Shown piece after piece: positions 30,069 through 56,837 of a stretch of 64,000 nucleotides of DNA. The position numbers were made by a program, and so were the translations under genes. Source of the DNA: an uncultured Spirochaetota bacterium (GTDB taxonomy: Bacteria; Spirochaetota; Spirochaetia; SZUA-6; Fen-1364). The notes below the pieces were generated by a model that saw nothing but the letters and a program-made list of their open reading frames with translations, was not told the DNA's origin and made no database searches. The DNA lies in the NCBI GenBank assembly GCA_963845325.1, contig CAWJRT010000001.1, positions 192,486-256,485 of the forward strand, read 5' to 3'. How positions within the stretch are numbered: the stretch's first letter is position 1; every line of letters begins with the position of its first letter.

Positions 30069-32447
30069 ATGAAAAATGAACAGAGTGAAGAAACTCATAT
30101 GCTGCCACGCCCAGTCCACTCCCTTCTTGGAGCGGGTCTCTGCCTGGGCGCACTTCTTGTGATCAGTTCATGCGAGATGCCTGCAATTACCAAGCCTGGG
30201 GGGAACAGCCAACCCGGCAGCGTTGCAGTGGCTCCGGACACAGCGTCCAGGACCATCGGTTCGGCTGTCAACAATCCGTCGGTGGTGATTGGTGAGCCAA
30301 ACATCCTGTCGACTGACGACTACTATGACGGAAACTATTTGCAAGCCCAGCAGACGAGCCTGGGGCAGTCGGCCACGGTTCAAACCTTGAGCATGTATGT
30401 AACGAGGGTTGCTGGGAAGCTGCGGCTCGGCATCTACGACGCCACCGGCCCAAAGGGAGGCCCTGGGGCGAAGAAGGCTGAGACGAATGAGATCACGCCC
30501 GTCGTCGGGTGGAACACGGCCAGCGTCATCGCTCCGGTCCTGCTACCGGCTGGGAGTTACTGGTTGGCCTACGTCCCCAGCAGCAACTCCCTGCACCTCC
30601 GCTGGACCAACACGGGCACTTCTATGTATTTTTCATATCCCTACGGGCCGATGCCGCAGACTTTCTCAACGCAAACCAGCGGTCTGACCAACCACTGGTC
30701 GTTCTACGCGACCCTTTCGCTGGCAATTGCTGCGAACAATCCTCCGCCTACCGTGGGAACAGCGGCTTCGGCAAGCCCCAACCCGGTCAGCGGAAAGACC
30801 ACCAACGTGAGCGTCATGGGCGCCGATGGCAGTGGTGAAGCCAGCCTCGTCTACACATGGTCAGCGACTGGCCCGAGTGCGGTTTCATTCTCCCCGAACG
30901 CGACCAACGCTGCCAAGAACTCACTCGCCACATTCGCCAAAGCTGGGAATTATGTTCTTCAGTCGGTAATTGCAGACCCACAGGGTCAAACGGCCACAAG
31001 CAGCGTGAATGTGACAGTTACTCAGACCCTCGCCAGCATCACAGTCAATCCTGGGAGCGCGACGGTGGCGACAGGCGCTACCCAGCAGTTCACAGGCTCC
31101 GCGAGCGATCAATTCGCTGGTGCGATGTTGCCTCAGCCCGCATTCGTCTGGACGGTCAGCGGCGGTGGCACGATCAGCTCAACGGGTCTCTTCACCGCCG
31201 CCAGTGCCTCCGGCGGTCCATTCACGGTGACCGCCACGAGCAACTCGCTGCTCGGCACCGCGAACGTGGTCATCAAAAGCAACCCTCCGCCGACCGTGGG
31301 AACAGCGGCTTCGGCAAGCCCCAACCCGGTCAGCGGAAAGACCACCAACGTGAGCGTCATGGGCGCCGATGGCAGTGGTGAAGCCAGCCTCGTCTACACA
31401 TGGTCAGCGACTGGCCCGAGTGCGGTTTCATTCTCCCCGAACGCGACCAACGCTGCCAAGAACTCACTCGCTACATTCGCCAAAGCTGGGAATTATGTTC
31501 TTCAGGCGGTCATTGCAGACCCACAGGGTCAAACGGCCACAAGCAGCGTGAATGTGACAGTTACTCAGACCCTCGCCAGCATCACAGTCAATCCTGGGAG
31601 CGCGACGGTGGCGACAGGCGCTACCCAGCAGTTCACAGGCTCCGCGAGCGATCAATTCGCTGGTGCGATGTTGCCTCAGCCCGCATTCGTCTGGACGGTC
31701 AGCGGCGGTGGCACGATCAGCTCAACGGGTCTCTTCACCGCCGCCAGTGCCTCCGGCGGTCCATTCATGGTGACCGCCACGAGCAACTCGCTGCTCGGCA
31801 CCGCGAACGTGGTCATCACCGGCAACTCCCCCCCGACAGTTCAGAATTATGGCACGAGTTTCCCTCTCACAGAAGACCCGATATCCGAAAGCGGAAACTG
31901 GATCAATGGTGGGGTTGTCGGTTTGGATTGGAATAATGTCCTCACCACAACCGGACTCGCTCAAGGTCAAAGTCCCAGTTCCGCAGCCTATAGTGATCCC
32001 ACTGCCTTGTTGGCAGGCACGTGGGGGCCGAATCAAACGGTGCAAGCTACGGTGTATTCCATAAATCAGAATGCAAATTATTATCAGGAGGTTGAGCTTA
32101 GGCTGCGCAGCAGACTTTCGGCACACAACTGCACTGGATATGAGATCAATTTCAGGTGTCTGCAGACCTCAGATGCATATATGCAAATCGTCAGATGGAA
32201 TGGTGCACTAGGCAGCTTCACCTACGTTTCCTCGTATAATGGCGCCCAGTACGGGGTCGCCAGTGGGGATGTTGTTAAGGCGACTATTATTGGAAATGTA
32301 ATCAACGTGTATAAAAACGGCATACTGATTGGGACTGGTACAGACAGCACATATGCGACAGGGAATCCAGGCATAGGATTTGATTTTGGTTGCGGTTCAA
32401 CTTATACGGATTTCGGGTTTACCAACCTTACCGCCTCTTCTCCCTGA
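30069..32447 (+). CDS. secreted multi-domain surface protein: DUF4082-like N-domain, 2 x (Ig-like + Big_2) modules, C-terminal lectin/jelly-roll-like domain
   Basis: AGGAGG RBS and a signal/TM segment LLGAGLCLGALLVISSC. Big_2-type ITVNPGSATVATGATQQFTGSASDQ...VTATSNSLLGTANVVI occurs twice. Intact, 792 aa. Confidence 0.8.
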   Translation: MKNEQSEETHMLPRPVHSLLGAGLCLGALLVISSCEMPAITKPGGNSQPGSVAVAPDTASRTIGSAVNNPSVVIGEPNILSTDDYYDGNYLQAQQTSLGQSATVQTLSMYVTRVAGKLRLGIYDATGPKGGPGAKKAETNEITPVVGWNTASVIAPVLLPAGSYWLAYVPSSNSLHLRWTNTGTSMYFSYPYGPMPQTFSTQTSGLTNHWSFYATLSLAIAANNPPPTVGTAASASPNPVSGKTTNVSVMGADGSGEASLVYTWSATGPSAVSFSPNATNAAKNSLATFAKAGNYVLQSVIADPQGQTATSSVNVTVTQTLASITVNPGSATVATGATQQFTGSASDQFAGAMLPQPAFVWTVSGGGTISSTGLFTAASASGGPFTVTATSNSLLGTANVVIKSNPPPTVGTAASASPNPVSGKTTNVSVMGADGSGEASLVYTWSATGPSAVSFSPNATNAAKNSLATFAKAGNYVLQAVIADPQGQTATSSVNVTVTQTLASITVNPGSATVATGATQQFTGSASDQFAGAMLPQPAFVWTVSGGGTISSTGLFTAASASGGPFMVTATSNSLLGTANVVITGNSPPTVQNYGTSFPLTEDPISESGNWINGGVVGLDWNNVLTTTGLAQGQSPSSAAYSDPTALLAGTWGPNQTVQATVYSINQNANYYQEVELRLRSRLSAHNCTGYEINFRCLQTSDAYMQIVRWNGALGSFTYVSSYNGAQYGVASGDVVKATIIGNVINVYKNGILIGTGTDSTYATGNPGIGFDFGCGSTYTDFGFTNLTASSP
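30738..31823 (+). repeat. in-frame tandem duplication, 2 x 543 bp, about 98% identical
   Basis: Copy 1 is 30738-31280 and copy 2 is 31281-31823, an offset of exactly 543 nt (181 codons). I count about nine mismatches. Confidence 0.95.
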
Positions 32448-32617: not shown

Positions 32618-33715
32618 TTACCATCTTTCTATGACATCCGCAATGAGCCGACAAAATGACGTATCCCCGTTCGGCGGTACCTGGTCGGCGCTCCCGACAA
32701 TGAGCCGACCGTCTCTGCCCAGCGTGTCCAGCAGAAGGGTCGTGTGACGCCGGATGTCATCCTCTGCCCATGGCGTGCAGAACATGGCCCCCGGGACGCC
32801 GCCCCAGATTATCGTGTTCGCGTTCCCCGCCAGTGCTCGAAGCTCTTCGATATTCACGTCCCCCACCGGAGCCGGCGTGATGGCCTCCACTGCGTCGAAG
32901 CCGCAGCTTGCCAGCCGGGGCAGGAGGCCACGGACACGGCCGTCCAGGTGGACGGCGGCGAATTTGCCCGCGGCATGCAGCTGCGCCACTCGTTTCTCGT
33001 AGTAGCTGCGCATCCAGTGATCGAAGTAAGGAGTCGACGCGCTGCTGTCCAGGTTGTCGCAGAAGTGGACGAGCTCGCATGGGGACGCAACGAGGGCTTC
33101 AAAAGCTGCGTCGTTCGCCTTGTCGATCGTACCGAGAACTTCACCGACCATGTCTCCATGATCGGCTGCCAGGAACACCGTACCCTCGACTCCGCACCAG
33201 TCGACCAGCAGGGCGGGAAGTGGGCTGCGCGGAGCCGGGGCCATCGGCAGCCCCGCGGCACCGATCCATGCGTCCATTCGCGGGTAGATGTCGGGGCAGG
33301 CCCGGAAGCAGGTCCGTTCGCATAGATCGCGCAAAACGCGGAGATCTGCGCGGCTCTTCACCGCGTAACCGTCATGAGCCCAGCATCGTGAGGGCTCCAG
33401 GTAACGCCAATGTTCGGTGATGATCCCGCTGGGGGTCCGCCAGGATTTGATCCGCTCGTCGGACGATTCAGAGGCTTTGAAATCGACACCGGTGAAGCCG
33501 TGCTCGAAAATACGCGAAGAATAATCGTAGTAACAGCACACGCCGAGCTCCTCGTGCAGGAGCCGAAAGCCCTCCGCGCCGCGGTAGCGCTTCTCAAGCG
33601 TTCCGGCAGAGGCTGCCGCCTCATACCAGTAGCTCAGATCCGCGAGCCATGCGGGTCGGTCAGGCTTCACGCCGCGAAAAGGGGCAAGGAGCCTCTGGCG
33701 TTGGGTCATCTGCAT
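32618..33715 (-). CDS. URO-D (uroporphyrinogen decarboxylase/MT2) family protein, paralog 1
   Basis: MQMTQRQRLLAPFRG...AAVHLDGRVRGLLPRLASCGFDAVEAI...LIVGSADQVPPNGD. Intact, 365 aa. Confidence 0.75.
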   Translation of the reverse strand: MQMTQRQRLLAPFRGVKPDRPAWLADLSYWYEAAASAGTLEKRYRGAEGFRLLHEELGVCCYYDYSSRIFEHGFTGVDFKASESSDERIKSWRTPSGIITEHWRYLEPSRCWAHDGYAVKSRADLRVLRDLCERTCFRACPDIYPRMDAWIGAAGLPMAPAPRSPLPALLVDWCGVEGTVFLAADHGDMVGEVLGTIDKANDAAFEALVASPCELVHFCDNLDSSASTPYFDHWMRSYYEKRVAQLHAAGKFAAVHLDGRVRGLLPRLASCGFDAVEAITPAPVGDVNIEELRALAGNANTIIWGGVPGAMFCTPWAEDDIRRHTTLLLDTLGRDGRLIVGSADQVPPNGDTSFCRLIADVIERW

Positions 33716-33815
33716 CGTGCGCGTCCCTCTTTGGCTTTGCTCCGGGGCCAATTCTACCTCGCCGCGTGGTGAACGCACAGAGCCTTTTCGTCGCACGGAG
33801 CCGGCACGCATAGGC

Positions 33816-33845
33816 TTGCGGCCCTCCGCAACCAGAGCGTATAGT
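33816..33845 (+). promoter_or_regulatory. promoter TTGCGG-18-TATAGT
   Basis: TATAGT 33840-33845 ends 8 nt before ATG 33854 and there is no Shine-Dalgarno. Confidence 0.35.
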
Positions 33846-33853
33846 CCGAATCT

Positions 33854-35338
33854 ATGAGCACACTGCGAGCAGACACGCTGAAAGCTGGATGGGGAACTGC
33901 TGACATTACTCCGCGGAGAACTGCATATTTGTACGGGCAGTACTACCAGAGGGTGTCGCGCTCCGTCCGCGATCCCCTGACAGTGACCGCACTTGCTCTC
34001 GAGCAGGGATGTGCGGACCGGGCTTCTGGGCAGGCAATCGTCATATCCTGTGATCTTCTGGAGGTCGGCCGCGGGGTGCTGGCGGAAGTGCGACTGCGCC
34101 TGGAACGCGAGATCCCGGATTTCGACAGCTCCCGCCTGGTGGTCAGCGCTACCCACACGCACTGCGCACCCGCCGCGGACGACCCGCTGAAGTGGTGGGA
34201 ACACGACCCGGCCCATCTGCCCATGGAAGAGTTCCGATCGCTGCTCGTTGATTCCCTCGTGGCCGCCGCGGTGGGCGCGTGGAAGAGCCGGTTGGACACG
34301 CACCTCGGCGCCGCTTCCGGCCTCGCGTCAATCGGTCATTGCCGCCGCCCGCTCTACCTCGACGGGAGCTCCGAGATGTACGGGACGACCGATCGTCCCG
34401 ATTTCATCGGCATGGAGGGCGGGAAAGACGACACCGTGGGCGTGGTTGGTGCCTGGACACTGAACGGTGAACTGACAGGCCTGGTCGTGAACGTGGTCTG
34501 TCCGGCCCAGGTCATGGAAGCCACGTACGTGGTCACGGCGGACATGTTCGGCGAAATGCGCAGACGGCTGCGCGAGCGCCTTGGAGCAGGGGTGAGCGTC
34601 CTTTGCCATGTCGGTGCGGCCGGGGACCAGGCCCCGCGTGACCTGACGCGGCCGTATACCGGCGGACCCACCTACTGGGACGAACCGGGCCTCATGGAGC
34701 TCGGCGGGAGGCTTGCCGACTCCGTGATGCAGGCGCTGCCGCGGGCCCAGGCCGCGCGAAGGGGAGGCATTCCGGTTCGACACGCGGTCTGCACGCCGCG
34801 GCTTCCCGTTCGAATGGTGACGCCCGGAGAGTACGCCCGCGCCGTGTCGGAACTGGCATCCCTGGTCGCCCGGGAACCGGCCGATCCCTGTTCTCCGGCT
34901 TCTGCCTTCGCGCGTTTCACGCAAAAGGTCAGGGAAAAGGAAAAGCTCACTATTCCCGGGCCATACGACGACAAGAACGACGATTTCGTCCTGATGCGCA
35001 ATCTCGAAGCGACCGTGAACCGCTTCCACGCCCAGCGCGAGAAGCCATGGTACGCCGCGGAGCTGCACGTGCTCCGGCTGGGCGATGTCGCACTGTCCAC
35101 AAGCCCCTTCGAGCTGTTCCTTGACTACGGTCTGCGCATCCGTGCTCGGAGCCCCGCGGCACTGACCCTCCACGCCGAGCTCTCGTGTGACGAAGCGGGG
35201 TACCTGCCGACTGCCCGGGCCGTTGCAGCGGGGGGGTACGGCGCTCTGGTCGCAAATGGATTCATCGGCCCGGAGGGCGGGCAGATGCTCGTCGAGTCCA
35301 TCCTGGCCGAGATTGACCGGCTCTTCGAGCCGGCCTGA
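33854..35338 (+). CDS. neutral/alkaline ceramidase-like family protein, paralog 1
   Basis: AGWGTADITP...VRDPLTVTALAL...VVSATHTHCAPA matches the N-terminal pattern of the non-lysosomal ceramidase fold. Intact, 494 aa. Confidence 0.65.
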   Translation: MSTLRADTLKAGWGTADITPRRTAYLYGQYYQRVSRSVRDPLTVTALALEQGCADRASGQAIVISCDLLEVGRGVLAEVRLRLEREIPDFDSSRLVVSATHTHCAPAADDPLKWWEHDPAHLPMEEFRSLLVDSLVAAAVGAWKSRLDTHLGAASGLASIGHCRRPLYLDGSSEMYGTTDRPDFIGMEGGKDDTVGVVGAWTLNGELTGLVVNVVCPAQVMEATYVVTADMFGEMRRRLRERLGAGVSVLCHVGAAGDQAPRDLTRPYTGGPTYWDEPGLMELGGRLADSVMQALPRAQAARRGGIPVRHAVCTPRLPVRMVTPGEYARAVSELASLVAREPADPCSPASAFARFTQKVREKEKLTIPGPYDDKNDDFVLMRNLEATVNRFHAQREKPWYAAELHVLRLGDVALSTSPFELFLDYGLRIRARSPAALTLHAELSCDEAGYLPTARAVAAGGYGALVANGFIGPEGGQMLVESILAEIDRLFEPA

Positions 35339-35403
35339 GCGGGGGCGCCGGCCGCGGGCTCGGCCGACGCCGGCTCAGTCGCCACGGGCGCAGCAGCTGG
35401 GGC

Positions 35404-36735
35404 TCAGCCGCCGCGGGACTGCCAGAGAAGCTTGACGGCGGCTTCCACCAACTGCTCTCCGGATCTCCCCGTGAGCAGCGAGGCTCCTGTCTCGTAGCCT
35501 CCCTGCGAGTACGCCTGGGACGTACACGCGTACCCCGGCAGGCACCCGTTGGCCAACTCGATCACGAACGTCCTGTTGAACGGCGCGCGATACTGGATGG
35601 TGATCCCGAACTCCACGAACAGCTCACCCGGCAGCCCGACCACCCGCGCCTCACCGATCCCGATCATCTGGACCTCAGCGGGGACCTCGTCGTACAGCAA
35701 TGACAGGCGTTCTCCACGTTCCCTGACGCGCACGTACCCGAGGGTGTCTTCTGCGCCGAGGAACCGCAGCTCCGCGTTCCAGATGTCCCTTTCCACTGTG
35801 CTCTCGGCTTTCGCTTTTTGCCAAGTGGCGCGCGTGATCTCCACTGCCTTCTCGGCGTCTGCGAGGGAGGGGAGAACCCTGGTCTCGATCTCCGTCTCAA
35901 CGGACCTCACCGAAAGCGCGGCATCCGTGCGGAACTCCATCCCTTCCAGGACGCGCGCAGCTTCTTCGCCGATTGCAGAGCCCACACGAACGGCTTCCGC
36001 GTACGTCTTTCCGCTGCGGAAATACCGGGGGCTCTGGTTTCCCGAGCACCCCTGAGCGAAGAGCAGCGTCACCCCCGGCGCGCGGGCGGCGAGATGCTTC
36101 CTGATGCACCCGGGATAGTCTGCGGAAACCTGCAGGTTGTCCGAGTGCAGGAACGTGGGGTGCAGGGCATATTTCACCAGGCAGCCGCGCGTTCTTCCCG
36201 CGGCATCGCGCACGCCAATGACCCACACCTCGGGGTCCGCGATGCCGTTCGGGTCGCGCCGGTTTCCCCCGACCCCGTTGTCCCGGCCGCAATATCCCTT
36301 CTCCACGCCCACGGCGGCGTCGAACCTGTTCTCCCAGGCTTCCTTCACGAGCGCGGCCAGCTTCTGTCTCAGGTCCGACATGAACCCGGCATCCGGCGTC
36401 AGGGCCTCCTCCAGGCCCTCCATGTCGAGTCTTCCTGACCCCCAGGGGCCGGAGTGCGTGTGGGAGCAGGTGATCATGATGTTGCTCGCGGGGATGGGCG
36501 CCTGCCGGGCGATCTGCTCCCGGGCGGCGGCGACTTCCTTCTTGGAGTACATCAGGAGGTCCATGGAAACGAAAGCGAGCCTCGTGGCGCCGTCATCCAG
36601 GCAGATACAGGCCGCATGCAGCGGGTCGTGGACCCCGGTGTTATGCCGGGGATGGTGGGGGTAGCCCGCCAGCTCGAGGCCGGGACCGGGAGAAATATCG
36701 ACCAGTGAAACTCCTGCCTGCAGCCGGTGTGCCAT
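35404..36735 (-). CDS. neutral/alkaline ceramidase-like family protein, paralog 2
   Basis: AGVSLVDISP...VHDPLHAACICL...ITCSHTHSGPWG. Intact, 443 aa. Confidence 0.65.
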   Translation of the reverse strand: MAHRLQAGVSLVDISPGPGLELAGYPHHPRHNTGVHDPLHAACICLDDGATRLAFVSMDLLMYSKKEVAAAREQIARQAPIPASNIMITCSHTHSGPWGSGRLDMEGLEEALTPDAGFMSDLRQKLAALVKEAWENRFDAAVGVEKGYCGRDNGVGGNRRDPNGIADPEVWVIGVRDAAGRTRGCLVKYALHPTFLHSDNLQVSADYPGCIRKHLAARAPGVTLLFAQGCSGNQSPRYFRSGKTYAEAVRVGSAIGEEAARVLEGMEFRTDAALSVRSVETEIETRVLPSLADAEKAVEITRATWQKAKAESTVERDIWNAELRFLGAEDTLGYVRVRERGERLSLLYDEVPAEVQMIGIGEARVVGLPGELFVEFGITIQYRAPFNRTFVIELANGCLPGYACTSQAYSQGGYETGASLLTGRSGEQLVEAAVKLLWQSRGG

Positions 36736-36765
36736 GAACCACCTCTTTCCGTCAAATTGCGGAAG

Positions 36766-38248
36766 CTACTCCTGCCGCAGGAGTCTCCCGCTGAGTTCCT
36801 GGAACTCCGCATACATGTGGTCGTAATGGTCCGCGCGATGCGCCCTCGGCTCATGGGAGGTTCGCACCGACAGATGGATGAAAGCCTCCTCCAGCCGTTC
36901 GAAGACTCTGCTCCCGAGGCCGGCAAGGATGGCGGCGCCCACGGATGCCGATTCGGGGGTGGCCATTGCGCTCACCGGACGCTTGAGCACGTCCGAGATG
37001 ATCCCGCACCAGACGTCGCTGCGCGAGCCGCCGCCGAAGATGCGCAGCCCCTCCACGGGCCGGGAGATGCTTTCCATCACCTCGAGGTTTGCCCGCACGA
37101 GGTAGGCGATTCCCTCATAGATGCTGCGCACGATCTGGCCGGGCGTGGTGGAGAGGTCCAGGCCGTGCAGGGTCCCGCGCGCGTCCGGATCGTGGAACGG
37201 TCCGGACGCCCCCGAGAAGAAGGGGAGCAGGAGCGGTGCATGGGCCCGGTCTCCCGCCTCGTCGGCAAGGCGGTTCAGTTCCGCGTCGTCGATGCCGGGA
37301 AGGAATACCTGCCTCGCCCAGTCCAGGATGCTGCAGCAGACCGCTGAACCTTCCAGCACCCAGCGGCCCGGCAGCAGGTCCGTGAAGCAGGGTATGCGCA
37401 TCTTCGGATCGATCACCGGGCTCTCGCATTTCTGCGTGATTGCCATGGCCGTGCCCAGGGAGATGGTGCAGATGCCCAGGTCGATACCGGCTCCGAGGGC
37501 GGCCACCTTCTGGTCCTGGCCGCCCATGATCACGCGGACATCCCGCGCGAGACCCAGGGCATCCGCTGCGTCGGCCCGCAGGGAGCCGATCTGCGTTCCG
37601 CCCCATTGGAGCCCGGGAAGCATGGTGCCGTCCAGGTCGAAGGCGTCCAGGATCGACGTCGACCACCGCTGCCCGGTGATGTCGTAAAGCATCGTCCCCG
37701 ACGCCATGGTGTGGTCGGTCGCATATTCGCCGGTAAGCCGGGCGATGATGAAATCCAGTGGCATGAGGATGCGCCGGCATTTTTTCCACTTCGACGGCTC
37801 GTTCTTTCGAAACCAGAGGAGCTTGGGCAGGAGGTACACCTCGTGACACCGCTTGCCCGGTGATGCCGAAGATCCGCTCTTCACCGAGCGTCTCCTCGAG
37901 AAGCCGCCTCTCGGCCGTGGCGCGGGTGTCCAGCCAGCTGAACCCGGGGCGGAGCGGCGTTCCCCTGCCGTCCACCGGGACGAAGGAGATGCCCTGGGAG
38001 CTGACGCCGACCCCGTGTACCTGGCTGGCATCACAACCGGGAGCATGGAGTGCCTCGCGCACCACTTCCTTGACCGCGGACCACCACTCCTCTGCGTCCT
38101 GCTCGATCTCGGTCCCCGACAGGGTGGCAAGAGAAAGGTGCCGCGCGGCGGCGGAGACGGGCTTCAGCTCCTGGTCGAACACCATCGCCTTGCAGACGGT
38201 GGTTCCCAGGTCGATCCCCACCAGGAGTGACCGCGCGCCGACGCCCAC
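36766..38248 (-). pseudogene. FGGY-family carbohydrate kinase (xylulokinase-like), frameshift near 37856
   Basis: ORF 37115..38248 N-terminus LLVGIDLGTTVCKAMVFD...GVGVSSQG...ERIFGITG joins ORF 36766..38130 (KRCHEVYLLPKLLWF...GGQDQKVAALGAG...IFGGGSRSDVW). Confidence 0.8.
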
Positions 38249-38251
38249 TTC

Positions 38252-39301
38252 TCATTCTCCCCGGAGCCGGGCCAGCTCCTGGAGCACAAAGGGCACCGTC
38301 CGCTGCCATGACGGTGGAACCTCTTCACTGATCATCATGCAGTATCGGTGCTGCGCTCCTGCGGTCATCGCGCGGAGCGCGGCCCTCATCTCCTCGCTGC
38401 TTCGCGAATACCAGCCGAGGTTGGGGTGAAGCCAAAGGAACACGCGCGGCCACAGTGCACGGGCTTCTGCCGCGGAAAGGTCCCCTTCCGGCGGGCCGGT
38501 GAGCGAATCGATGCCGGCAAAGGGAAGGGCGGCGATCTCATGCGCGATGGGCCGCAGCCTGCCGTCGTAATGGACATGGATCCCCTTGCCGGTGTCTTCC
38601 AGGAGCGCGAACAGCCGTTGATACAGCGGAACGAGGAAGCGCCGGTAGAGGTCAGGCCCCATGGTTTCGATGCTGAGGTTCTCCCAGAGCTTGATCATTA
38701 CCGCGCGGCTTGACCGGACCAGGCGGAACTTTTCCACCACGCGCTCGTTCATCAGCTCGATGAGGTCCAGGAGACTCCGCTCCTCCCCGGCGAGATCGAG
38801 GGAGAACCGCTCCAGGCCCGCGCAGTCAATCTGCACCGCCTGCAGCGGTGTGCGGCATTCCAGCGTTTCCTCGGCGAGCTGCCCCATGGTGACCCCGCGC
38901 GGACCAACGGCGGCCTCCGAACGGTCGAAGGCCTCGTCGGTGGCCGTGAACCGCGTGCCCTCGATCGCGCGGGCCAGCACGCGATAGTCGGCGGCGGACT
39001 TCACCAGGTACTCCTGCCGCCACTCGCCTCGGTACCACTCGTGAAGCTCGCCGATGTCGGTGATCCAGCGCACATCCCGCCGCGGGCCCCCCGCGTCCGC
39101 TGATTCTGTCTCGATGATCTGCGCATGCGGGTATTGAACGCGCAGGAGCGGGGCGTGTGCGATTTCACCGAGGCCACGGTCGAAAAGGCTGGACCAGTCG
39201 ATGCGCCGGTTCTTCACAAACCAGTCGTACACGGCGTACACCGGTGCATCCGCCGGTTCCCCGGCAAGGGCGCCCAGAAGTCTCTCCCTGATCGTCGCCA
39301 T
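38252..39301 (-). CDS. URO-D family protein, paralog 2
   Basis: MATIRERLLGALAGEPADAPVY...IHVHYDGRLRPIAHEIAALPFAGIDSL...MMISEEVPP. Intact, 349 aa. Confidence 0.7.
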   Translation of the reverse strand: MATIRERLLGALAGEPADAPVYAVYDWFVKNRRIDWSSLFDRGLGEIAHAPLLRVQYPHAQIIETESADAGGPRRDVRWITDIGELHEWYRGEWRQEYLVKSAADYRVLARAIEGTRFTATDEAFDRSEAAVGPRGVTMGQLAEETLECRTPLQAVQIDCAGLERFSLDLAGEERSLLDLIELMNERVVEKFRLVRSSRAVMIKLWENLSIETMGPDLYRRFLVPLYQRLFALLEDTGKGIHVHYDGRLRPIAHEIAALPFAGIDSLTGPPEGDLSAAEARALWPRVFLWLHPNLGWYSRSSEEMRAALRAMTAGAQHRYCMMISEEVPPSWQRTVPFVLQELARLRGE

Positions 39302-39336
39302 GGTTTCTTCCGGTGGGACGCCGCGCGCCGGCGGCC

Positions 39337-39829
39337 TCAGGAACCCTTGAAGTTGCCCCCGATGGGGATCCGGGAATTCGCGAAGTAGTTGTCGTCGAGG
39401 AGGCATGGCTGGGACACCTCCAGGAGGAGTGCGGGGCCGATTCCCCGAAAGCTGTGCGGCGCCCCCGGGAGGATGGTCTGCACCTCTCCCGGGTTCATGA
39501 CCCGGTCCCCGCCGTCCACTGTCATTCGGACTTTTCCGTGCACGACGTAGAATGTCTCGTGCTTCATGCGGTGGTGGTGAGCGGGGCAGGTTTGACCGTC
39601 GAAGACGAAAAGGAACTTGCCGCAGTATCCCGCCGTTGTCTCGTTGGCAACCCAGCATTCGATCAGGCCGTCGCGCCGGAAATCCCCCAGGCCGAAATCC
39701 TGGACGATCGCCTCTGCCCGGTGGCATCGTGACATGCCAGTCGGCGAGGCAGGCTTCGAATTCCCTGACCGCCTGCTCTCGCGCCGGCCCGGTGAGCGAA
39801 ATTGCAAGTACTTTTCCCAGTTCATCCAT
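39337..39829 (-). pseudogene. D-lyxose/D-mannose isomerase-like cupin, frameshift near 39718
   Basis: MDELGKVLAISLTGPAREQAVREFEACLADWHVTMP (frame of ORF 38252..39829) joins AEAIVQDFGLGDFRRDGLIECWVANETTAGYCGKFLFVFDGQTCPAHHH...LLEVSQPCLLDDNYF (ORF 39337..39969). Confidence 0.65.
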
Positions 39830-39986
39830 GCCGCTTCTCCTCGGGAATGATAGGAGCGCGACGGACCAATGTCAACGAGCGTGAGCGGCGCGGCGTGCTC
39901 GGCTTGCTTGTCCCGGGCCGCTGTGCCGGCTTGCGATCCTCGCTTGCGTCGCGCGGCTGTCTTCCACACGGGAGGCGACCCGTCCT

Positions 39987-40490
39987 ATGATCTCCATGGA
40001 GGACGATGGCATGATCCCCAGCGACCATTACGTACGGCTCTACAACGAGCTGTTCAAGATGCTCGGCGAGCGGGGGCGGGAAGACCTCCGGGAGTACTGG
40101 CGCGAGATTTCCCGGCTGCAGAAGACCCTCCTCGGCCCTTTCATCGAAGCCGACGGGCTTCGCGGGATGTATATCTACTGGGAGCACATACGGGTGGAGG
40201 AGAACTGCGAGGCAGACCTCAAGCTCACGGATGACTACTTCGAGTTCAAAATGCTCAAGTGCCCCTCCCTCGCAAAGGCGATGGACAACGATGCCGGCGC
40301 TTACGCGTACTACTGTGACCACTGCTCGGGATGGATTGCCCCGATCATGGAGCAGTACGGCTACCATCTGGCCTACGACATGATCTCCCGCACGGAGCCG
40401 CGGTGCACCATGAGGGTCTACAAGGACCGGGAAAAAGCCGAAGCCTTCCTGAAACAGGCACGGCTGCCGGCCCGGCCGTACGGAGACTGA
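39987..40490 (+). CDS. small conserved hypothetical protein with a Cys cluster (CPS...C-x2-C...C)
   Basis: 167-aa intact ORF. ...FKMLKCPSLAKAM...YYCDHCSGWIAPIMEQYGY...EPRCTMRVYK. Confidence 0.5.
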   Translation: MISMEDDGMIPSDHYVRLYNELFKMLGERGREDLREYWREISRLQKTLLGPFIEADGLRGMYIYWEHIRVEENCEADLKLTDDYFEFKMLKCPSLAKAMDNDAGAYAYYCDHCSGWIAPIMEQYGYHLAYDMISRTEPRCTMRVYKDREKAEAFLKQARLPARPYGD

Positions 40491-40492
40491 AC

Positions 40493-40945
40493 ATGCGCTA
40501 CAGGGACACCGGCAATGTGCACAAGGACTTTCACCTCGCGCTGAACACGTCCATCCAATACGTCCTGGGCAGGTACGGCATGGAGTTTCTCCGCGAGCTC
40601 TTTCGACGCACCGCCCAGGAGGTGTACCGGGAAATCTACCTCTCCTTGAAGCAGGGCGACTGGAAGCCGCTGCTGGAACACTGGACCTATTACTACGATC
40701 GGGAACTGGGGAAGTATGAGGTGACGACCGCCGAGGGCGGGTTCATCTTCCTGGTGCAGGAGTGTCCCGCCGTTCGGCACCTCCGGGAAAGAAACGTCCC
40801 GGTCACACCGGATTTCGCGCTCCAGGAAACGCTCATGAACGAGGCATGGTCTTCCGGAACCCCGTTCGAGATCCGGACCGAGATCCTTGCCGAGGGCTCC
40901 TACCGGATGTCCGTGCTGCCGCGTCCCGGCCGGCCGGAATCCTGA
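40493..40945 (+). CDS. small hypothetical protein, apparent Cys-poor paralog of the preceding ORF
   Basis: ATG 40493 lies 2 nt after the previous stop. ...FIFLVQECPAVRHLRERN... aligns with the CPS segment of the upstream ORF. Confidence 0.45.
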   Translation: MRYRDTGNVHKDFHLALNTSIQYVLGRYGMEFLRELFRRTAQEVYREIYLSLKQGDWKPLLEHWTYYYDRELGKYEVTTAEGGFIFLVQECPAVRHLRERNVPVTPDFALQETLMNEAWSSGTPFEIRTEILAEGSYRMSVLPRPGRPES

Positions 40946-41110
40946 CCCGCCGCGCTTCTTGCGGGAACCGCGGACACGGGAGCGTTCCAACCTTGACAGC
41001 GCGCTTCCGGCTGGATTAGCATGACCTGTCCGCCGAGACAACTCCGTGAGTGCAGAGACTGACCTTGGGAATGCGCCCCGGGGCTGCAAAGGCGCGGACA
41101 AGGAGGTCTG

Positions 41111-42400
41111 ATGAAAACCAGAATACGTTTCGCGGTCGTCCTTGCATGCATTGCGCTGCCGCTCGCGCTTTTCGCGGCTGCAAAGTACGACGGAGTCAAC
41201 CTCACCTTCCTGATCCAGGGAGGCGCCGCGTATGACATCGCCAATGCCTCGGGGAAGACCTACCTGGCCACCATGGCGGACGAGTTCAAGGCCGAGACCG
41301 GAGCTGCCGTCACCATCGTCGGTCAGCCGTGGGAAAACCTCATGCCGAAGATCATGACGGACGTGCAGAGCGGCGCCGGCCAGTTCGACGGCATGCTGTT
41401 CGACATCGAATTCCAGTACACGATTTTTCCCTACCTGTTGAAGATCCAGCCCTTCATAGACAAGGCGAAGTTCGACATGACGGGCTTCGTGGCGCCCGTC
41501 TACAAGTACGGCGAGTGGGCGGGAAAGGGAAACCGCTACGGCATTCCCCTCACCTCTGATGTCATGCCCATCATCTACCGCACTGATCTCGTGAAGTCCG
41601 TGCCCAGTACGTGGGACGCGTTCTACGCGATGCTGGACCAGCTGAAGGCATCCGGCAAGGTGAAATACCCCGTGACCCTCCCGGGCGTGCCCGCGCAGCT
41701 GGTGAAGATGTTCCTCGCGTACTTCTGGTCCACCGGGGATGCGACGATCAGCCCCGACTGGAAGCCCCAGATCAACAACAAGAACGGCAAGTGGGCCATT
41801 GCCCAGCTGGACAAGGTCATCAAGAACTACGCCGCCCCCGGCACGCTGGGGTATGACAACCCGGATGCCGCCAACGAGTTCGTGGCGGGCAACGCCGGCC
41901 TGTACCTGAACTGGCTGGCGTTCATCCTGCCTACACTCATGAACGACGAGAAGAACGGGACGGTGAAGGGCAAGTGGACCCTTGCGAAGTTCCCCTCCGG
42001 TGGTACAGGCAATTTTACCCAGCACAGCTTCATCATCATGAAGAGCAGCAAGAACCCGCAGGCTACCTTCGACTTCATCGCGAAGTGCACGTCGGTGGCG
42101 AACATGAAGCGCGCGGTGCTTGACTTCGGCATCGACGTGTCCCGTGAGAGCGTTCTGAAGGACAAGGGCGTACTCGCGAAGCTCCCGTACGAAGCCGCCT
42201 ACGCGGACGTCCTGAACGCCGGCAAGCCGGTGTTCCCGGGCGTGCCCTACTGGCTGGAGCTCTTCATTGCTCTCGCGGACGGGTTGAGCGAATACTACAG
42301 CGGACAGACCACGGATTCCCAGGTCGCCCTCGATCACATCGCGGCGAAATGGACGAGCATCATCCAGGCCAACCCGCTCAACTTCTCCTACAAAGAGTAG
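41111..42400 (+). CDS. ABC transporter extracellular solute-binding protein (sugar)
   Basis: GGAGG RBS and signal peptide MKTRIRFAVVLACIALPLALFAA. Intact, 429 aa. Confidence 0.85.
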   Translation: MKTRIRFAVVLACIALPLALFAAAKYDGVNLTFLIQGGAAYDIANASGKTYLATMADEFKAETGAAVTIVGQPWENLMPKIMTDVQSGAGQFDGMLFDIEFQYTIFPYLLKIQPFIDKAKFDMTGFVAPVYKYGEWAGKGNRYGIPLTSDVMPIIYRTDLVKSVPSTWDAFYAMLDQLKASGKVKYPVTLPGVPAQLVKMFLAYFWSTGDATISPDWKPQINNKNGKWAIAQLDKVIKNYAAPGTLGYDNPDAANEFVAGNAGLYLNWLAFILPTLMNDEKNGTVKGKWTLAKFPSGGTGNFTQHSFIIMKSSKNPQATFDFIAKCTSVANMKRAVLDFGIDVSRESVLKDKGVLAKLPYEAAYADVLNAGKPVFPGVPYWLELFIALADGLSEYYSGQTTDSQVALDHIAAKWTSIIQANPLNFSYKE

Positions 42401-42472
42401 GCTTTTCACACGGGGCGGGTACCGCGTCGGTGCCCGCCTCCTCATTCACGATCACCTCCAGGGAGAACCACA

Positions 42473-43366
42473 GTGCAAACGGGCCTCACGTACAGGCAAC
42501 AGGAAAAGAGGGGGGTGCTGCTGTTCCTCACCCCCGCCGTGGTCGTCCTGCTGGTCACCTCGGTGTTCCCGCTCGTCTACTCCCTGGTGCTGAGCCTGTT
42601 CCAGTGGAACATGCTCATGCCCCTCTCGGTCCCGAAATTCACGGGCCTCGCCAACTACGCCCGTGCCTTCCAGGACCACGAGTTCACCGGCTCCCTGCTG
42701 AGGACTGTGCTGTACGTCCTGATCGCGGTGCCGACGGAGTTCGTCGCGGGGCTTGCCATCGCGCTGCTCGTTACCGCGCGGCTCCGCGGCCTGCCCGCGT
42801 TCCGCGTGGCGCTGCTCATGCCGCTCATGATGACCCCCGTCGTGGTCGGCGTGCTCTGGAGGTTCCTGCTCAACCCCGAGTACGGCGTGGTGGACTTCGT
42901 CCTGCAGGCATTCGGCGGCCACGCCGTCACGTGGCTCGCAAAACGGGGCACTGCCTTCGCCTCCATCCTGATCGTGGAGATCTGGCAGCAGCTCCCCGTG
43001 GTGATCTTCATCCTCGCGGCGGGCATCAGCAGCCTTCCGGACAGCATCTTCGAGGCGGCGGACATCGACGGCGCCACCCGCTGGCAGAGATTTCGCCTCC
43101 TGACCTTGCCGCTCCTGCGGCCGGTCATCGCCGTGGTGCTTCTCCTCCGGATCATGGACTGTTTCAAGATCTTCGACGCCCTCTACACCCTCACCTACGG
43201 CGGGCCGGGGTCTTCCACGGAGCTGATCTCCCTGTTCATCTACAAGCAGGGCCTCAAGTTCTTCCAGATCGGCCGCGCCACGTCGATGTCATGGCTCTTC
43301 CTGGTGGTCGTCTTCGTGATCAGCATCTTCTTCATGCGCCAGGTCTGGAAAGAGCAGTCGTACTGA
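42473..43366 (+). CDS. carbohydrate ABC transporter permease
   Basis: 297-aa intact ORF with EAA loop EAADIDGATRWQRFRLLTLPLLRP. Confidence 0.85.
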   Translation: MQTGLTYRQQEKRGVLLFLTPAVVVLLVTSVFPLVYSLVLSLFQWNMLMPLSVPKFTGLANYARAFQDHEFTGSLLRTVLYVLIAVPTEFVAGLAIALLVTARLRGLPAFRVALLMPLMMTPVVVGVLWRFLLNPEYGVVDFVLQAFGGHAVTWLAKRGTAFASILIVEIWQQLPVVIFILAAGISSLPDSIFEAADIDGATRWQRFRLLTLPLLRPVIAVVLLLRIMDCFKIFDALYTLTYGGPGSSTELISLFIYKQGLKFFQIGRATSMSWLFLVVVFVISIFFMRQVWKEQSY

Positions 43367-43377
43367 TGGAGGCGCGC

Positions 43378-44238
43378 ATGAACAGGTCGCAGTCGTCCTC
43401 GGCCCGGGCGTGGAGAATCACCGGCAGGAGCATCGCGTACATCCTCCTGATCGCGCTGTGCGTGGTGATGATCTTCCCGGTGTACTGGCTGGTGGCCACC
43501 GCCGTGAAGGCCGGCAACGACATCATAGCCACCCCTCCCATCTTCATTCCCTTCCGGGTGACGGCGGACAACTTCTCCAACGTCTTCGTCAAGCAGGGGA
43601 TCGGCCTGAACCTGTTCAACAGCGTGGTGGTGACCGCGCTCTCCGTCTTCTTTCTGATCCTCATCGGCTCCATGGCCGCCTACGCCCTGTCGAAGCCCGT
43701 TCTCCACCGGCGCACGACGAAGGGGATCCTGATCTGGATCCTGATCACCCGCATCTTCCCGCCGGTGACAACGGTGATCCCCTATTTCATGATCATCAAG
43801 TTCATCGGGCTCATCGACACGCGCGCGTCCCTGATCCTCACGTACGTTTCCTACGGGCTGCCGTTCGCCATCTGGCTCATGCTGGGGTTTTTCCAGGAGC
43901 TTCCAAAGGAGATCGAGGAAGCCGCGCTCGTGGAGGGGTACACGCTGTCCCAGCGCTTCTTCTACATCCTCCTCCCCCTGACGCTGCCGGGGATCGCGGT
44001 GACGGCGATCTTCATGTTCATCTACTCGTGGAACGAGTTCATGTTCGCCACCACTCTCACCACGCTCCGGGCAAAGACCCTGCCGGTGGTGATCTCCACG
44101 TTCATGTCGGACAAGTACCTGGACTGGGGCTCCATGGCCACCATGGGCACCCTCATGATCGTGCCGATCATCCTCTTCTCTCTGTTCAGCCAGAAGTACC
44201 TGGTCCGCGGTCTCACGTTCGGAGCCGTGAAGGGCTGA
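43378..44238 (+). CDS. carbohydrate ABC transporter permease
   Basis: MNRSQSS...IFPVYWLVATAVK...EEAALVEGYTLSQRFFYILLPLTLPG. ATG 43378 follows GGAGG (alternative start 43366). Confidence 0.85.
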   Translation: MNRSQSSSARAWRITGRSIAYILLIALCVVMIFPVYWLVATAVKAGNDIIATPPIFIPFRVTADNFSNVFVKQGIGLNLFNSVVVTALSVFFLILIGSMAAYALSKPVLHRRTTKGILIWILITRIFPPVTTVIPYFMIIKFIGLIDTRASLILTYVSYGLPFAIWLMLGFFQELPKEIEEAALVEGYTLSQRFFYILLPLTLPGIAVTAIFMFIYSWNEFMFATTLTTLRAKTLPVVISTFMSDKYLDWGSMATMGTLMIVPIILFSLFSQKYLVRGLTFGAVKG

Positions 44239-44265
44239 TGGGGACGGACGCCGGTCCCGGTAGCT

Positions 44266-45421
44266 TCAGAGGCTCCCGAAGAGGAGCTCACCGGACACGA
44301 AGGTCGCCACGAGCCTCAAGGCATTGTCCAGCAGGATGATGTCCGCATCCATGTCCGTCGCGAGGAGCCCCTTCCGCAGGCGGAGAAGCCGGCCGGCGTT
44401 GCGGGAGCACAGCGCGGATGCCTCGCGGATGGACCTGCCGAAAAGGTTCACCGCGTTGCGGAAGCTTTGCAGGTGCGTCAGGCAGGAGCCTGAGAGCGCG
44501 CCGTCGGTGACCCTCCTCATGCCGCGGTCAGGCGTCACGGCGATTTTTTCATTATCGGCAAGTCCATCGTACACGCCGGGGGGGTTCCCCGAGCCCCGGA
44601 GACTGTCCGTCACGAATACTACCCTCTCCAGGCCCTTGCAGCGCAACGTCTTCTCGACCAGGAAGGGATGGACGTGCACGCCGTCCGGGACGATCTCCAC
44701 CGTGACCCGGTCCTCGATCTGCAGGTAGTCGGTCAGGCCCGCCGGATAGACGCCGGGGTCTGTCTCCACGGCAGAGTCGAAAGTGTCATACAGATGGGTG
44801 ACCAGGGAAAGGCCCGCGTCGATTGCCCGGCGGGCCTGCTCCACCGAGGCCCGCGTATGGGCCAGGCTCACGACGATTCCCCTGCCCGGCCGCCCAGCGG
44901 ATGAACGGGAGGGCGCCGGGGAGCTCCGGTGAGACGTCCCAGACCGGGATCCTGCCCCTGGCGGCCTCGTACAGGCCGGCGGTCACGCCCTGCTCGATGC
45001 CGCTCAGAGACCCGGCCGAACCTGCACCGGTCTTGGCAACGTACATGATTTCCGGGCGGAAGCCGAGGATGTTCGGCGTACGCGCGAGGTCGTCGGTTTC
45101 CTTCATCCCTTCGATGATGCGTCGGCGGTTCATCTCCGGAGAGCCATACAGGGTGGGCACACAGCAGGTCACACCCTGCTCGAGCTGGAGCCGGGAGTAC
45201 TCAAGGAGCGAACCGTCCTGGACCGATTCGGATTTCAGGCCATGGGTGTGAAGGTCGACAAGACCGGGCAGCGCGAAAAGTCCCTCCGCATCGAAGACGT
45301 TCTCTGCCGCCCCGGCGTCGAGGCGCGGTCCGATCTCGATGATTCTCCCCTGGTCCACGCGAACGTCCGTCCCGGGCCGCAGGTCGTCGACGTGGAGGAC
45401 AGTCGCGCCGCGGATGATCAT
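44266..45421 (-). pseudogene. amidohydrolase, N-acetylglucosamine-6-phosphate deacetylase-like, frameshift near 44885
   Basis: ORF 44786..45421 (MIIRGATVLHVDD...LPGLVDLHTHG...) joins ORF 44266..44871 (GIVVSLAHTRAS...VTHLYD...VTDSLRGSG...). Confidence 0.7.
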
Positions 45422-46353
45422 CAGTAGGCGAAATCCCAGTGCGGCTCGATGTTCGCCGCGGCGTTCTCAGAGACGATCACATCCGTGGGCAGCTCCTGCA
45501 GCAGGGATTCCGGCACGCGGGGCGTCACCGGACCATGGAGGATCAGCCGGGTTACGAAGCGCTGCCAGGAAACCGCCGTTCCCGCAACGGCGAGCGCGTG
45601 CTGCTGCATCCGGTACTTTGCGCCGATTACTTCCGCAGGCCCGATCGTGGCCGCCCGGGGCGGAACGAGCGCAAGGTCGCCGCTCATGCCGAAGCTCCCG
45701 TGCAGCGAGTTCTGTGCGATGGTAAAGGGGCTCAGCGTGACAACGCGGGGCCCCATCTTTTTCCATTCCGCGAGGTCCGCATTGAACTCGGGGGCGTCCG
45801 GCTCGATGAAGGCCAGGTGTCCCGTCCAGCCGGGACCGCTGTAGCAGGCGTCCGCCCCGCCGAGGTCCGCCATCATTTTCCCGTAGTCCTTGATGTTCTC
45901 ATTCGTCGGGCCATGGATCTGACGTTCCGCCGGACGGAGGGAAGGATCGAGGTTCTTGTAGAAATAGCTCTTGAACGATCGCATGAAGCCCTGGGGAAAG
46001 GATTCCGGGGCGATCGTGCCGTCGTCATTGGCGTACTCGTCCATGATGAAGACGTGGAGATGCCTGCAGTCGATCCGCAGCTTGTTGAGAATATGCGCCA
46101 ACTTCATGTAGCCGTGATTCGGATTGGGAAGGATCAAGACACAGTGTCTGTGCTCTTCTGCTGCCTTCATGATGCGGAAGAGCATGTCGGCAATGAAAAT
46201 AAACTCCACCTGGTCGTTGGGTACGACCTGGATTTTAAACTCAGGATTCGGGTGCCTTTCGATCTCGTCTCGCGTGATTCGCCGAACTCGATCCAGCACA
46301 TCCACATCACGGAAAGGGACCCATTTGGATGGGCTGTATGAGAACTCCTTCAT
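45421..46353 (-). CDS. glucosamine-6-phosphate deaminase/6-phosphogluconolactonase superfamily protein
   Basis: MKEFSYSP...CVLILPNPNHGY...LHVFIMDEYANDDG...GWTGHLAFIEP. Its stop overlaps the NagA-like start. Confidence 0.65.
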   Translation of the reverse strand: MKEFSYSPSKWVPFRDVDVLDRVRRITRDEIERHPNPEFKIQVVPNDQVEFIFIADMLFRIMKAAEEHRHCVLILPNPNHGYMKLAHILNKLRIDCRHLHVFIMDEYANDDGTIAPESFPQGFMRSFKSYFYKNLDPSLRPAERQIHGPTNENIKDYGKMMADLGGADACYSGPGWTGHLAFIEPDAPEFNADLAEWKKMGPRVVTLSPFTIAQNSLHGSFGMSGDLALVPPRAATIGPAEVIGAKYRMQQHALAVAGTAVSWQRFVTRLILHGPVTPRVPESLLQELPTDVIVSENAAANIEPHWDFAY

Positions 46354-56830: not shown

Positions 56831-56837
56831 GGAAGGG

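Follow-up and report, generated by a model that had tools for sequence, protein, structure and literature searches.

A conserved 13-gene sugar catabolic cluster with ceramidase-fold, URO-D-fold, and NagA/NagB-like proteins in an uncultured Spirochaetota bacterium

We analyzed a stretch of 64,000 nucleotides (the window) from an uncultured Spirochaetota bacterium (assembly GCA_963845325.1, contig CAWJRT010000001.1, positions 192,486 to 256,485 of the forward strand). The interval from 32618 to 46353 of this window (13.7 kb) contains 13 genes in five transcription units and is a sugar catabolic gene cluster assembled from uncharacterized enzyme subfamilies. The genes were mapped with frame plots of third-position G+C content (GC3), Pfam and NCBIfam scans, and orthologs such as those of L089, a contig from a short-read metagenome. 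Raw lists of open reading frames (ORFs) are crowded with long spurious frames because the window is ~63% G+C. The genes are listed below with their window coordinates; lengths given as repaired are those after removal of one inserted base.

32618 to 33715, minus strand: URO-D-like 1, 365 amino acids; monocistronic, divergent from ceramidase-like 1; called from Pfam, GC3, and the L089 ortholog
33854 to 35338, plus strand: ceramidase-like 1, 494 amino acids; recognized by paralogy to ceramidase-like 2
35404 to 36735, minus strand: ceramidase-like 2, 443 amino acids; last gene of the cupin operon; PF04734
36766 to 38248, minus strand: FGGY kinase, xylulokinase-like, 493 amino acids (repaired); FGGY_N and FGGY_C
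38252 to 39304, minus strand: URO-D-like 2, 350 amino acids; recognized with AlphaFold and Foldseek
39337 to 39829, minus strand: cupin, D-lyxose/D-mannose isomerase-like, 163 amino acids (repaired); heads the leftward operon
40011 to 40490, plus strand: small protein A, 159 amino acids from M9; Bet3/TRAPPC3/V4R-like model
40493 to 40945, plus strand: small protein B, 150 amino acids; distant paralog of A
41111 to 42400, plus strand: CUT1 solute-binding protein, 429 amino acids; signal peptide; SBP_bac_1
42473 to 43366, plus strand: ABC permease 1, 297 amino acids; BPD_transp_1, 56 bits
43366 to 44238, plus strand: ABC permease 2, about 290 amino acids; BPD_transp_1, 62.8 bits in this frame
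44266 to 45421, minus strand: NagA-like amidohydrolase, 384 amino acids (repaired); TIGR00221
45421 to 46353, minus strand: NagB-like deaminase/isomerase, 310 amino acids; TIGR00502

The interval starts at the stop codon of URO-D-like 1 and ends at the start codon of the NagB-like gene, which are exactly the outer limits set in an initial annotation of this DNA. All of the gene classes named there are present (two URO-D-like and two ceramidase-like genes, the cupin, the FGGY kinase, the CUT1 importer, NagA-like and NagB-like genes, and two small proteins), as is the divergent pair of operons, with the leftward operon running from 39829 to 35404 and the rightward one from ~40011 to 44238. Several gene models had to be changed. 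GC3 plots and orthologs rule out ORFs of 561 and 525 amino acids as the URO-D-like genes, in favor of genes of 365 and 350 amino acids; the start of URO-D-like 1 (MQMTQRQ) was picked from the GC3 frame plot and its 365-amino-acid L089 ortholog. The upstream part of the 525-amino-acid ORF is the cupin gene read out of frame, not URO-D-like sequence, and the frame change near 39300 is the boundary with the cupin gene rather than a frameshift inside URO-D-like 2. Finally, the kinase, cupin, and NagA-like genes had been treated as intact, and each is frameshifted in the window sequence.

The complete cluster is conserved. In L089, all 13 genes are found in the same order and orientation with the same gene lengths and ~79% protein identity, while the flanks are different, and the arrangement is therefore not due to chance. 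The co-localization proposed in the initial annotation is thus kept in relatives, with full synteny in L089 and partial synteny in L005, L001, and L088. We fetched 90 loci, 80 of them through a genome scan that started from the ceramidase-like family, and scanned the 87 non-redundant loci with the window proteins; counts are given for the 50 loci of at least 15 kb. A ceramidase-like gene is present in 48 of the 50, an FGGY kinase in 44, NagA-like and NagB-like genes in 29 each, a V4R protein in 21, an isomerase (cupin or FucI-like) in 18, a DHDPS or HpcH aldolase in 17, and a URO-D-like gene in 8. In the 48 loci with a ceramidase-like gene, the kinase accompanies it in 43 and a URO-D-like gene in only 7. 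The pairing of URO-D-like and ceramidase-like genes, highlighted in the initial annotation, is thus not the conserved core. The core is the kinase with the ceramidase-like gene, usually joined by NagA-like, NagB-like, and V4R genes, and it crosses phyla, with carriers in Spirochaetota, Clostridia, and Actinomycetota, among them Treponemataceae, Christensenellaceae, Oscillospiraceae, and Lachnospiraceae. URO-D-like genes are accessories confined to particular lineages.

Individual loci illustrate how this core is embedded. In the cultured Anaerosacchariphilus hominis, the genes run isomerase, CUT2 ABC transporter, FGGY kinase, NagA-like, DeoR, ceramidase-like, NagB-like, DeoR, which is a typical regulated catabolic operon. 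A Christensenellaceae genome has Opp-type ATPases, an FG-GAP protein, DHDPS, DUF386, a V4R fusion, kinase, NagA-like, ceramidase-like, NagB-like, a major facilitator superfamily (MFS) transporter, and DeoR, and in Clostridia import for the core falls to CUT2 (monosaccharide-type), Opp-type, or MFS transporters. Minimal cassettes (L013, L026, and L032) consist of LacI, kinase, ceramidase-like gene, and FucI-like isomerase, with neither a NagA-like nor a NagB-like gene. L001 and L088 carry extra genes for DHDPS and HpcH aldolases, short-chain and GFO oxidoreductases, an aminotransferase, and DUF386. In L005, a CUT2 transporter is accompanied by a URO-D-like gene, an M15 peptidase (11006 to 11869), kinase, ceramidase-like gene, FucI-like isomerase, URO-D gene, and a second ceramidase-like gene in reverse orientation, all placed behind the transporter. 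A ceramidase-like gene is absent from L006, where creatininase-family amidohydrolases (9112 to 9912 and 14012 to 14810) lie beside the URO-D-like, isomerase, and kinase genes, which suggests a non-homologous replacement of the amide-cleaving step. The presence of a creatininase in L006 and of an M15 peptidase in L005 beside URO-D-like, isomerase, and kinase genes suggests that cleavage of an amide is what the module needs. One Treponemataceae metagenome-assembled genome (MAG) has two copies of the kinase/ceramidase-like module on different contigs (L008 and L039), one with NagA-like, NagB-like, and V4R genes and the other with a URO-D-family gene, a FucI-like isomerase, and a CUT1 transporter.

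These data bear on whether the interval is a single pathway or a composite in which independent modules lie together (a lyxose/mannose isomerase with a xylulokinase, a NagA/NagB pair, and unrelated amidases and TIM barrels). The five transcription units, the presence of URO-D-like genes in just 8 of the 50 large loci, the variation in isomerase and transporter types among lineages, and a kinase that scores only slightly below the XylB cut-off would all fit a composite. However, the complete 13-gene order has been kept at ~79% protein identity while the flanks changed, and single operons in distant phyla contain the kinase, ceramidase-like, NagA-like, NagB-like, and V4R genes side by side. We therefore consider a composite locus unlikely, while giving it some weight.

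The ceramidase-like assignment made in the initial annotation stands up to profile searches, with zinc ligands and catalytic residues falling on invariant or near-invariant positions. Ceramidase-like 2 scores 41.8 bits against Pfam PF04734 (cut-off, 32.1). Ceramidase-like 1 reaches only 17.6 bits and belongs to the family only by virtue of its paralogy to ceramidase-like 2 (27% identity over the full length; E = 1e-21); its orthologs have 491 amino acids in L089 and 493 in L005. A family profile built from 21 members matches, in the PDB, Pseudomonas neutral ceramidase (PaCD, 2ZWS; E = 1.1e-17) and human neutral ceramidase (ASAH2, 4WGK; E = 1.3e-16). Residues H97, H99, H204, E411, Y448, and Y460 of 2ZWS align to H92, H94, H192, E371, Y402, and Y414 of ceramidase-like 2; these zinc ligands and catalytic His and Tyr residues are invariant in the family, except that H192 is nearly so. 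Ceramidase-like 1 retains the HTH motif, the Glu, and the two Tyr residues that are invariant in family alignment A1, and has Cys in place of the second zinc His. While the catalytic domain is shared with the neutral ceramidases, the locus proteins differ from them in several respects. They have 443 and 494 amino acids, compared with 646 to 688 (~650 to 690) for the ceramidases; they give no Pfam match to the C-terminal immunoglobulin-like domain; no hydrophobic leader or signal peptide can be read at either N terminus; they are set among sugar operons; and the neutral ceramidase ortholog model NF041649 gives 24.7 bits against a cut-off of 1200, so that the ortholog level is not reached. Based on these comparisons, the proteins are homologs of the neutral ceramidase catalytic domain and are predicted to be cytoplasmic. 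The subfamily is large, with 14,540 representatives at E ≤ 1e-3, 6,662 at E ≤ 1e-10, and 763 at E ≤ 1e-30, each representative being a cluster at 50% identity.

The NagA-like and NagB-like genes resemble those of the N-acetylglucosamine 6-phosphate pathway, in which a deacetylase of amidohydrolase fold is followed by a deaminase/isomerase of NagB fold. In the locus, the stop codon of the NagB-like gene overlaps the start codon of the NagA-like gene by one base, and, as in that pathway, the two genes are translationally coupled and lie with genes for a kinase and an importer. The two proteins match only the nagA and nagB families, and do so far under the ortholog cut-offs: the repaired NagA-like protein (384 amino acids, as in its intact L089 ortholog) scores 140.2 bits against TIGR00221 (cut-off, 225.65), and the NagB-like protein scores 37.4 bits against TIGR00502 (cut-off, 236.9) and has no Pfam match at E < 0.01. 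This points to a related but different substrate. The NagB-like protein matches glucosamine 6-phosphate deaminase in the PDB (6NBG; E = 2e-8) and carries the MDEY and GHLAFIEP (GHxAFxEP) motifs with the catalytic Asp, His, and Glu. Compared with the Escherichia coli NagB sequence, MDEY and GHxAFxEP are kept and the phosphate loop TGGTP is replaced by NPNHG. Two further differences from the N-acetylglucosamine 6-phosphate pathway are that the kinase is of the FGGY xylulokinase-like type rather than ROK/NagK and that a second, unrelated amidase is always present in this type of locus.

The kinase and the cupin are closest to enzymes of neutral sugars. The repaired kinase scores 359.2 bits against TIGR01312 (XylB; cut-off, 380.25), which is the best score among all FGGY subfamilies. 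The cupin scores 47.8 bits against Cupin_2 and 34.6 bits against Lyx_isomer (PF07385; cut-off, 20.8), the latter over a partial stretch only, matches the D-lyxose isomerases 2Y0O (E = 2e-8) and 7NZO (E = 3e-6) in the PDB, and has a readable HHH...E...H motif. A small cupin, putatively of the lyxose isomerase type, heading an operon with a xylulokinase-like FGGY kinase resembles the route that joins a D-lyxose/D-mannose isomerase to xylulokinase. In contrast to that route, the cupin reaches only 20.7 bits against the D-lyxose isomerase ortholog model NF051472 (cut-off, 350), most relatives have a FucI/AraA-like isomerase instead, and the pair is set among amidases and a deaminase.

The two URO-D-like proteins, which are 28% identical over 186 amino acids, score 22.0 (URO-D-like 1) and 19.2 bits (URO-D-like 2) against Pfam URO-D, both below the cut-off of 23.9. 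The AlphaFold model of URO-D-like 2 (predicted local distance difference test [pLDDT], 94.3) has the TIM-barrel fold of the URO-D/MtaA-CmuA superfamily (Foldseek E = 1e-9 to 1e-8), with matches at template modeling (TM) scores of 0.58 to 0.60, including MtaA 4AY8 (E = 1.2e-9) and human URO-D (E ~1e-8; TM, 0.60; 12 to 14% identity). Unlike the members of that superfamily, the locus proteins are below the Pfam gathering score, are only 12 to 15% identical to URO-D and MtaA in structural alignments, and have an inserted beta domain (residues 46 to 98 of URO-D-like 2); the zinc-thiolate motif H-x-C...C of MtaA and CmuA is replaced by an invariant H-x-D, with H245-x-D247 of URO-D-like 2 aligning to the MtaA H-x-C in the profile. 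Neither protein matches TIGR01464 (HemE), no haem-pathway gene is found among the annotated neighbors in the window, L089, L005, and L006, and no corrinoid-protein gene was seen in any locus examined. By profiles and alignments, the two proteins are not HemE and lack the MtaA zinc motif, and the initial annotation was right both in setting them apart from HemE and in noting that haem and corrinoid neighbors are missing. A third URO-D-family gene lies outside the interval at ~54600 to 55736 (plus strand); its product is MtaA-like and, at 69 bits, clearly exceeds the Pfam cut-off. The gene directly follows a second CUT1 set on the plus strand (binding protein, 51410 to 52819; permeases, 52869 to 53741 and 53734 to 54579), so that here too a URO-D-fold protein is attached to a sugar importer without corrinoid or haem genes.

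The importer is of the CUT1 type, with an SBP_bac_1 binding protein (94 bits; N terminus MKTRIRFAVVLACIALPLALFAAAK, with a signal peptide) and two BPD_transp_1 permeases. In the PDB, the binding protein has distant matches only (binders of sophoro-oligosaccharide, trehalose, and maltose), and these are too distant to hint at the substrate. By phmmer, the 64-kb window contains no homolog of a MalK-type (MalK/MsmK) ATPase, which is absent from L089 too, and none of DeoR, LacI, or GntR; ArgR, encoded ~3 kb beyond the interval, is the sole transcription factor recognized. The description of the cluster as lacking a regulator and an ATPase therefore holds for this lineage but is unremarkable, since other lineages carry DeoR, LacI, or GntR genes within the cassette. 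It is common for CUT1 systems to rely on a shared ATPase whose gene lies at another site. No palindrome that could serve as a common operator was found among the three promoter regions of the window and L089, in which only sigma-70-like -10 and -35 elements recur. Both ArgR domains occupy only the last ~150 codons of a 596-codon ORF (27643 to 29433, plus strand), which is either a high-G+C artifact or conceals another frameshift.

Small proteins A and B, which head the importer operon, are distant paralogs of each other (BLASTP E = 5e-4). Protein A has no Pfam match (including V4R) and no NCBIfam match. The model of protein A (pLDDT, 91.5) retrieves Bet3/TRAPPC3 structures as nearly all of its top 20 Foldseek matches, with probabilities of ~1.0 but E values of 3e-3 and TM scores of 0.47 to 0.53. 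V4R/TRAPPC3 domains are dimeric ligand binders stabilized by Zn(Cys)4 (PMC10933270). The locus model resembles them in its two-layer alpha/beta fold and long N-terminal helices, and its invariant Cys/His cluster (C74, C92, C110, H112, C113, and C140) would sit where V4R and Thor-TRAPPC3 bind structural zinc; the paired, heterodimer-like arrangement is also similar. Unlike V4R proteins, A and B stand alone, without a DNA-binding or AAA+ module. In Clostridia, they are fused into one protein of ~314 amino acids without a Pfam or NCBIfam match, encoded between DUF386 and the kinase or adjoining the isomerase (L056, 6431 to 7372; L055, 180 to 1118; L078, 6267 to 7238), and the two small proteins therefore work together. 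We propose that A and B have a Bet3/V4R-like ligand-binding fold, the fold match itself being only moderate (TM, ~0.5).

Three of the 13 genes are interrupted in the window sequence, and we asked what this says about the state of the cluster. The kinase (~37858), cupin (~39719), and NagA-like (~44887) genes each contain one inserted base and are split over two frames. All three breaks are +1 insertions in the context C[C]GGGCA (string CCGGGCA), and deletion of one base restores ORFs of 493, 163, and 384 amino acids with no further visible damage. In L089 the genes are intact (494, 163, and 384 amino acids), and none of the three sites has the extra base. Over 2.76 kb of DNA (the cupin/URO-D-like 2/kinase part), L090 is 97.9% identical to the window; it has an intact cupin gene (163 amino acids), and differs by four indels, all of which are single-base insertions in the window and two of which are the kinase and cupin sites; the kinase insertion near 37858 is thus missing from both relatives. 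Genes outside the cluster are damaged as well. The housekeeping gene purC (19544 to 20498, minus strand) is split into two frames at a G6 homopolymer (~20140), the profile match to argJ (17244 to 18278, minus strand) covers only positions 16 to 292 of 377, and a metallo-beta-lactamase ORF ends at another CCGGGCA site. The damage to purC and argJ means that indel errors affect the whole window. Because the relatives are free of the insertions, the CCGGGCA context is shared, and purC is also split, the three frameshifts are most likely long-read assembly errors and not pseudogenes. That the interruptions mark a decaying locus, with the pathway being lost in this organism, we regard as extremely improbable on the same grounds.

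Insertions in the C[C]GGGCA context are found at window positions 15172, 37858, 39719, and 44887, and relatives have CGGGCA at the three sites inside the cluster. The 7-mer CCGGGCA occurs 40 times in the window compared with 20.5 expected, and none of 100 shuffles reached 40. The pattern resembles a systematic fault of long-read basecalling or polishing, perhaps one tied to a methylation motif. In the nearest genome representative (79%), a Spirochaetota MAG, the ceramidase-like and kinase genes are also fragmented.

Large surface-type proteins flank the cluster (30069 to 32447, plus strand, Big_2/PKD; 47050 to 48768, minus strand, Big_2/Listeria-Bacteroides repeat/LamG), and these are absent from the flanks of L089. 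Farther to the right, a fatty-acid desaturase gene (56709 to 57971, plus strand) and a gene of the fatty-acid hydroxylase family (57990 to 59030, minus strand) form a convergent pair, and the related cluster in L005 is also adjoined by a desaturase.

We read the interval as a single conserved island of genes for breaking down an N-acylated amino sugar, or a small conjugate of such a sugar, and assign this reading a probability of about 0.5. The conserved unit would be a cytoplasmic pathway in which a metalloenzyme that cleaves amides works with a kinase and with an aldose-ketose conversion; this conversion would fall to the deaminating NagB-like enzyme, to an isomerase (cupin or FucI-like), or to both. 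From the gene content, folds, conserved catalytic residues, and conserved linkage, we infer the following substrate handling, order of steps, and activities. The periplasmic CUT1 binding protein and the two permeases would import the compound with a shared ATPase encoded elsewhere. In the cytoplasm, the ceramidase-fold protein, as a putative zinc amidase, would strip an N-acyl or other amide-linked group, and the xylulokinase-like FGGY kinase would phosphorylate the sugar. The NagA-like amidohydrolase would then take off a (second) N-acetyl group, and the NagB-like enzyme would deaminate and isomerize the amino-sugar phosphate to a ketose phosphate and ammonia. The cupin, as an aldose-ketose isomerase, and the two URO-D-fold proteins, as metal-binding TIM barrels, may act on a second moiety or a side branch as replaceable accessories. 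The two Bet3/V4R-like proteins may form a zinc-stabilized heterodimer that binds a small ligand as a carrier or sensor. Since two unrelated deacylases co-occur, the substrate perhaps has two amide groups. The most likely benefit to the host is that the spirochaete feeds on an N-acylated, nitrogen-containing sugar.

The initial annotation had proposed an undescribed pathway for an N-acylated, possibly fatty-acylated, or otherwise modified glycoside. Full-text literature searches gave no description of such a cluster, so that "undescribed" stands, and an N-acylated amino sugar is the best reading of the substrate. The other parts of the proposal do not hold up: nothing indicates a fatty-acyl group, and a glycoside is not supported, since no glycosidase is present and the core in Clostridia uses the monosaccharide-type CUT2, Opp-type, or MFS transporters.

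Several observations weigh against an amino-sugar pathway. We found no characterized member of the ceramidase-like, URO-D-like, or V4R-like subfamilies in the full-text literature. The enzymes closest to the kinase and the cupin, xylulokinase and D-lyxose isomerase, respectively, work on neutral sugars, so that a neutral pentose or hexose may be the substrate of part of the locus. The minimal cassettes without NagA-like and NagB-like genes mean that an amino sugar is not required wherever the ceramidase-like enzyme occurs. Transporter types vary among lineages, and because the loci were gathered by ceramidase-like similarity, co-occurrence has been measured only from the viewpoint of that gene. 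The pathway also leaves the role of the URO-D-like proteins unexplained.

The ceramidase fold, which suggests lipid-linked amides, also raises the question of whether the cluster serves envelope recycling rather than feeding, that is, salvage of N-acylated amino sugars from the cell's own peptidoglycan, glycolipids, or lipoglycans. The M15 (VanX-type) peptidase in the syntenic L005 cluster, the Opp-type transporters of some cassettes, and the fatty-acid desaturase near the cluster in the window and in L005 are consistent with this. High-affinity binding-protein importers and DeoR, LacI, or GntR repressors, however, are typical of nutrient operons, the cassette is patchily distributed with two copies in some genomes (L008 and L039 of one MAG), and no murein-specific genes (MurQ, AnmK, or AmpD types) were seen. 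We consider recycling highly unlikely.

The aldolase and DUF386 variants in relatives point toward sialic-acid-like sugars, and the window copy lacks those genes. In a sialic-acid-like route without NanE, a nonulosonic-acid lyase would yield an N-acyl-mannosamine-type or di-N-acetyl-deoxyhexose-type sugar for the cassette to process; the kinase, together with the NagA-like and NagB-like enzymes, would convert this sugar directly to a ketose phosphate, the ceramidase-fold enzyme would remove a second or unusual N-acyl group, and the window copy would be the "downstream half" for free N-acyl-mannosamine-like sugars. Many relatives' cassettes share with nan clusters (NanA lyase, NanK, NanE, YhcH, NagA, and NagB) a DHDPS-family aldolase, DUF386 (the YhcH family), NagA-like and NagB-like genes, and a binding-protein importer. 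Many Clostridia, as well as L001 and L088, have the aldolase and DUF386 in the same operon; L001 and L088 add a GFO oxidoreductase, a class III aminotransferase, an HpcH aldolase, and a CUT1 transporter and in this resemble anhydro-sialic-acid clusters. The L078 operon has no NanE-sized gene as far as it is annotated, the cupin appears to be of the D-lyxose/D-mannose isomerase type, which handles manno-configured sugars, and two different deacylases would suit a di-N-acylated sugar. In contrast to nan clusters, the window copy and L089 have neither a DHDPS nor a DUF386 gene, no NanE or ROK kinase was seen, an aldolase is found in only 17 of the 50 large loci, and no sialidase is linked except for a BNR protein in L004. 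FGGY kinases are not known to phosphorylate N-acetylhexosamines, which also counts against this route, and no described nan cluster is known to include ceramidase-fold and V4R-like proteins, nor did we find a paper on one. On balance, a sialic-acid-like route appears distinctly unlikely.

A bolder extension would make the kinase/ceramidase-fold/NagA-like/NagB-like/V4R cassette the missing catabolic route for di-N-acylated bacterial sugars, with the ceramidase-fold proteins as a new class of cytoplasmic sugar de-N-acylases and the URO-D-fold proteins as a new class of metal-dependent sugar-modifying enzymes. Candidate substrates may then include pseudaminic or legionaminic acid, their 2,4-diacetamido-2,4,6-trideoxyhexose cores, or an N-acyl-mannosamine-type sugar processed without NanE; our literature searches on pseudaminic and legionaminic acid catabolism found no described pathway. 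We offer this as speculation, with the odds well against it.

Whatever the substrate, single-domain cytoplasmic ceramidase-fold proteins form a large family. Gene order links this family with a kinase, a deacetylase, and a deaminase both in gut Clostridia (Christensenellaceae, Oscillospiraceae, and Lachnospiraceae) and in environmental spirochaetes. The cassette is carried by cultured organisms (Anaerosacchariphilus hominis NSJ-68 and Anaerobacterium chartisolvens DSM 27016), and the question is therefore directly testable. Identification of the substrate would give four or five unannotated families a function in one step, would reveal a new use of the ceramidase fold, and would add a nutrient niche to models of carbon and nitrogen turnover in the gut and in sediments.

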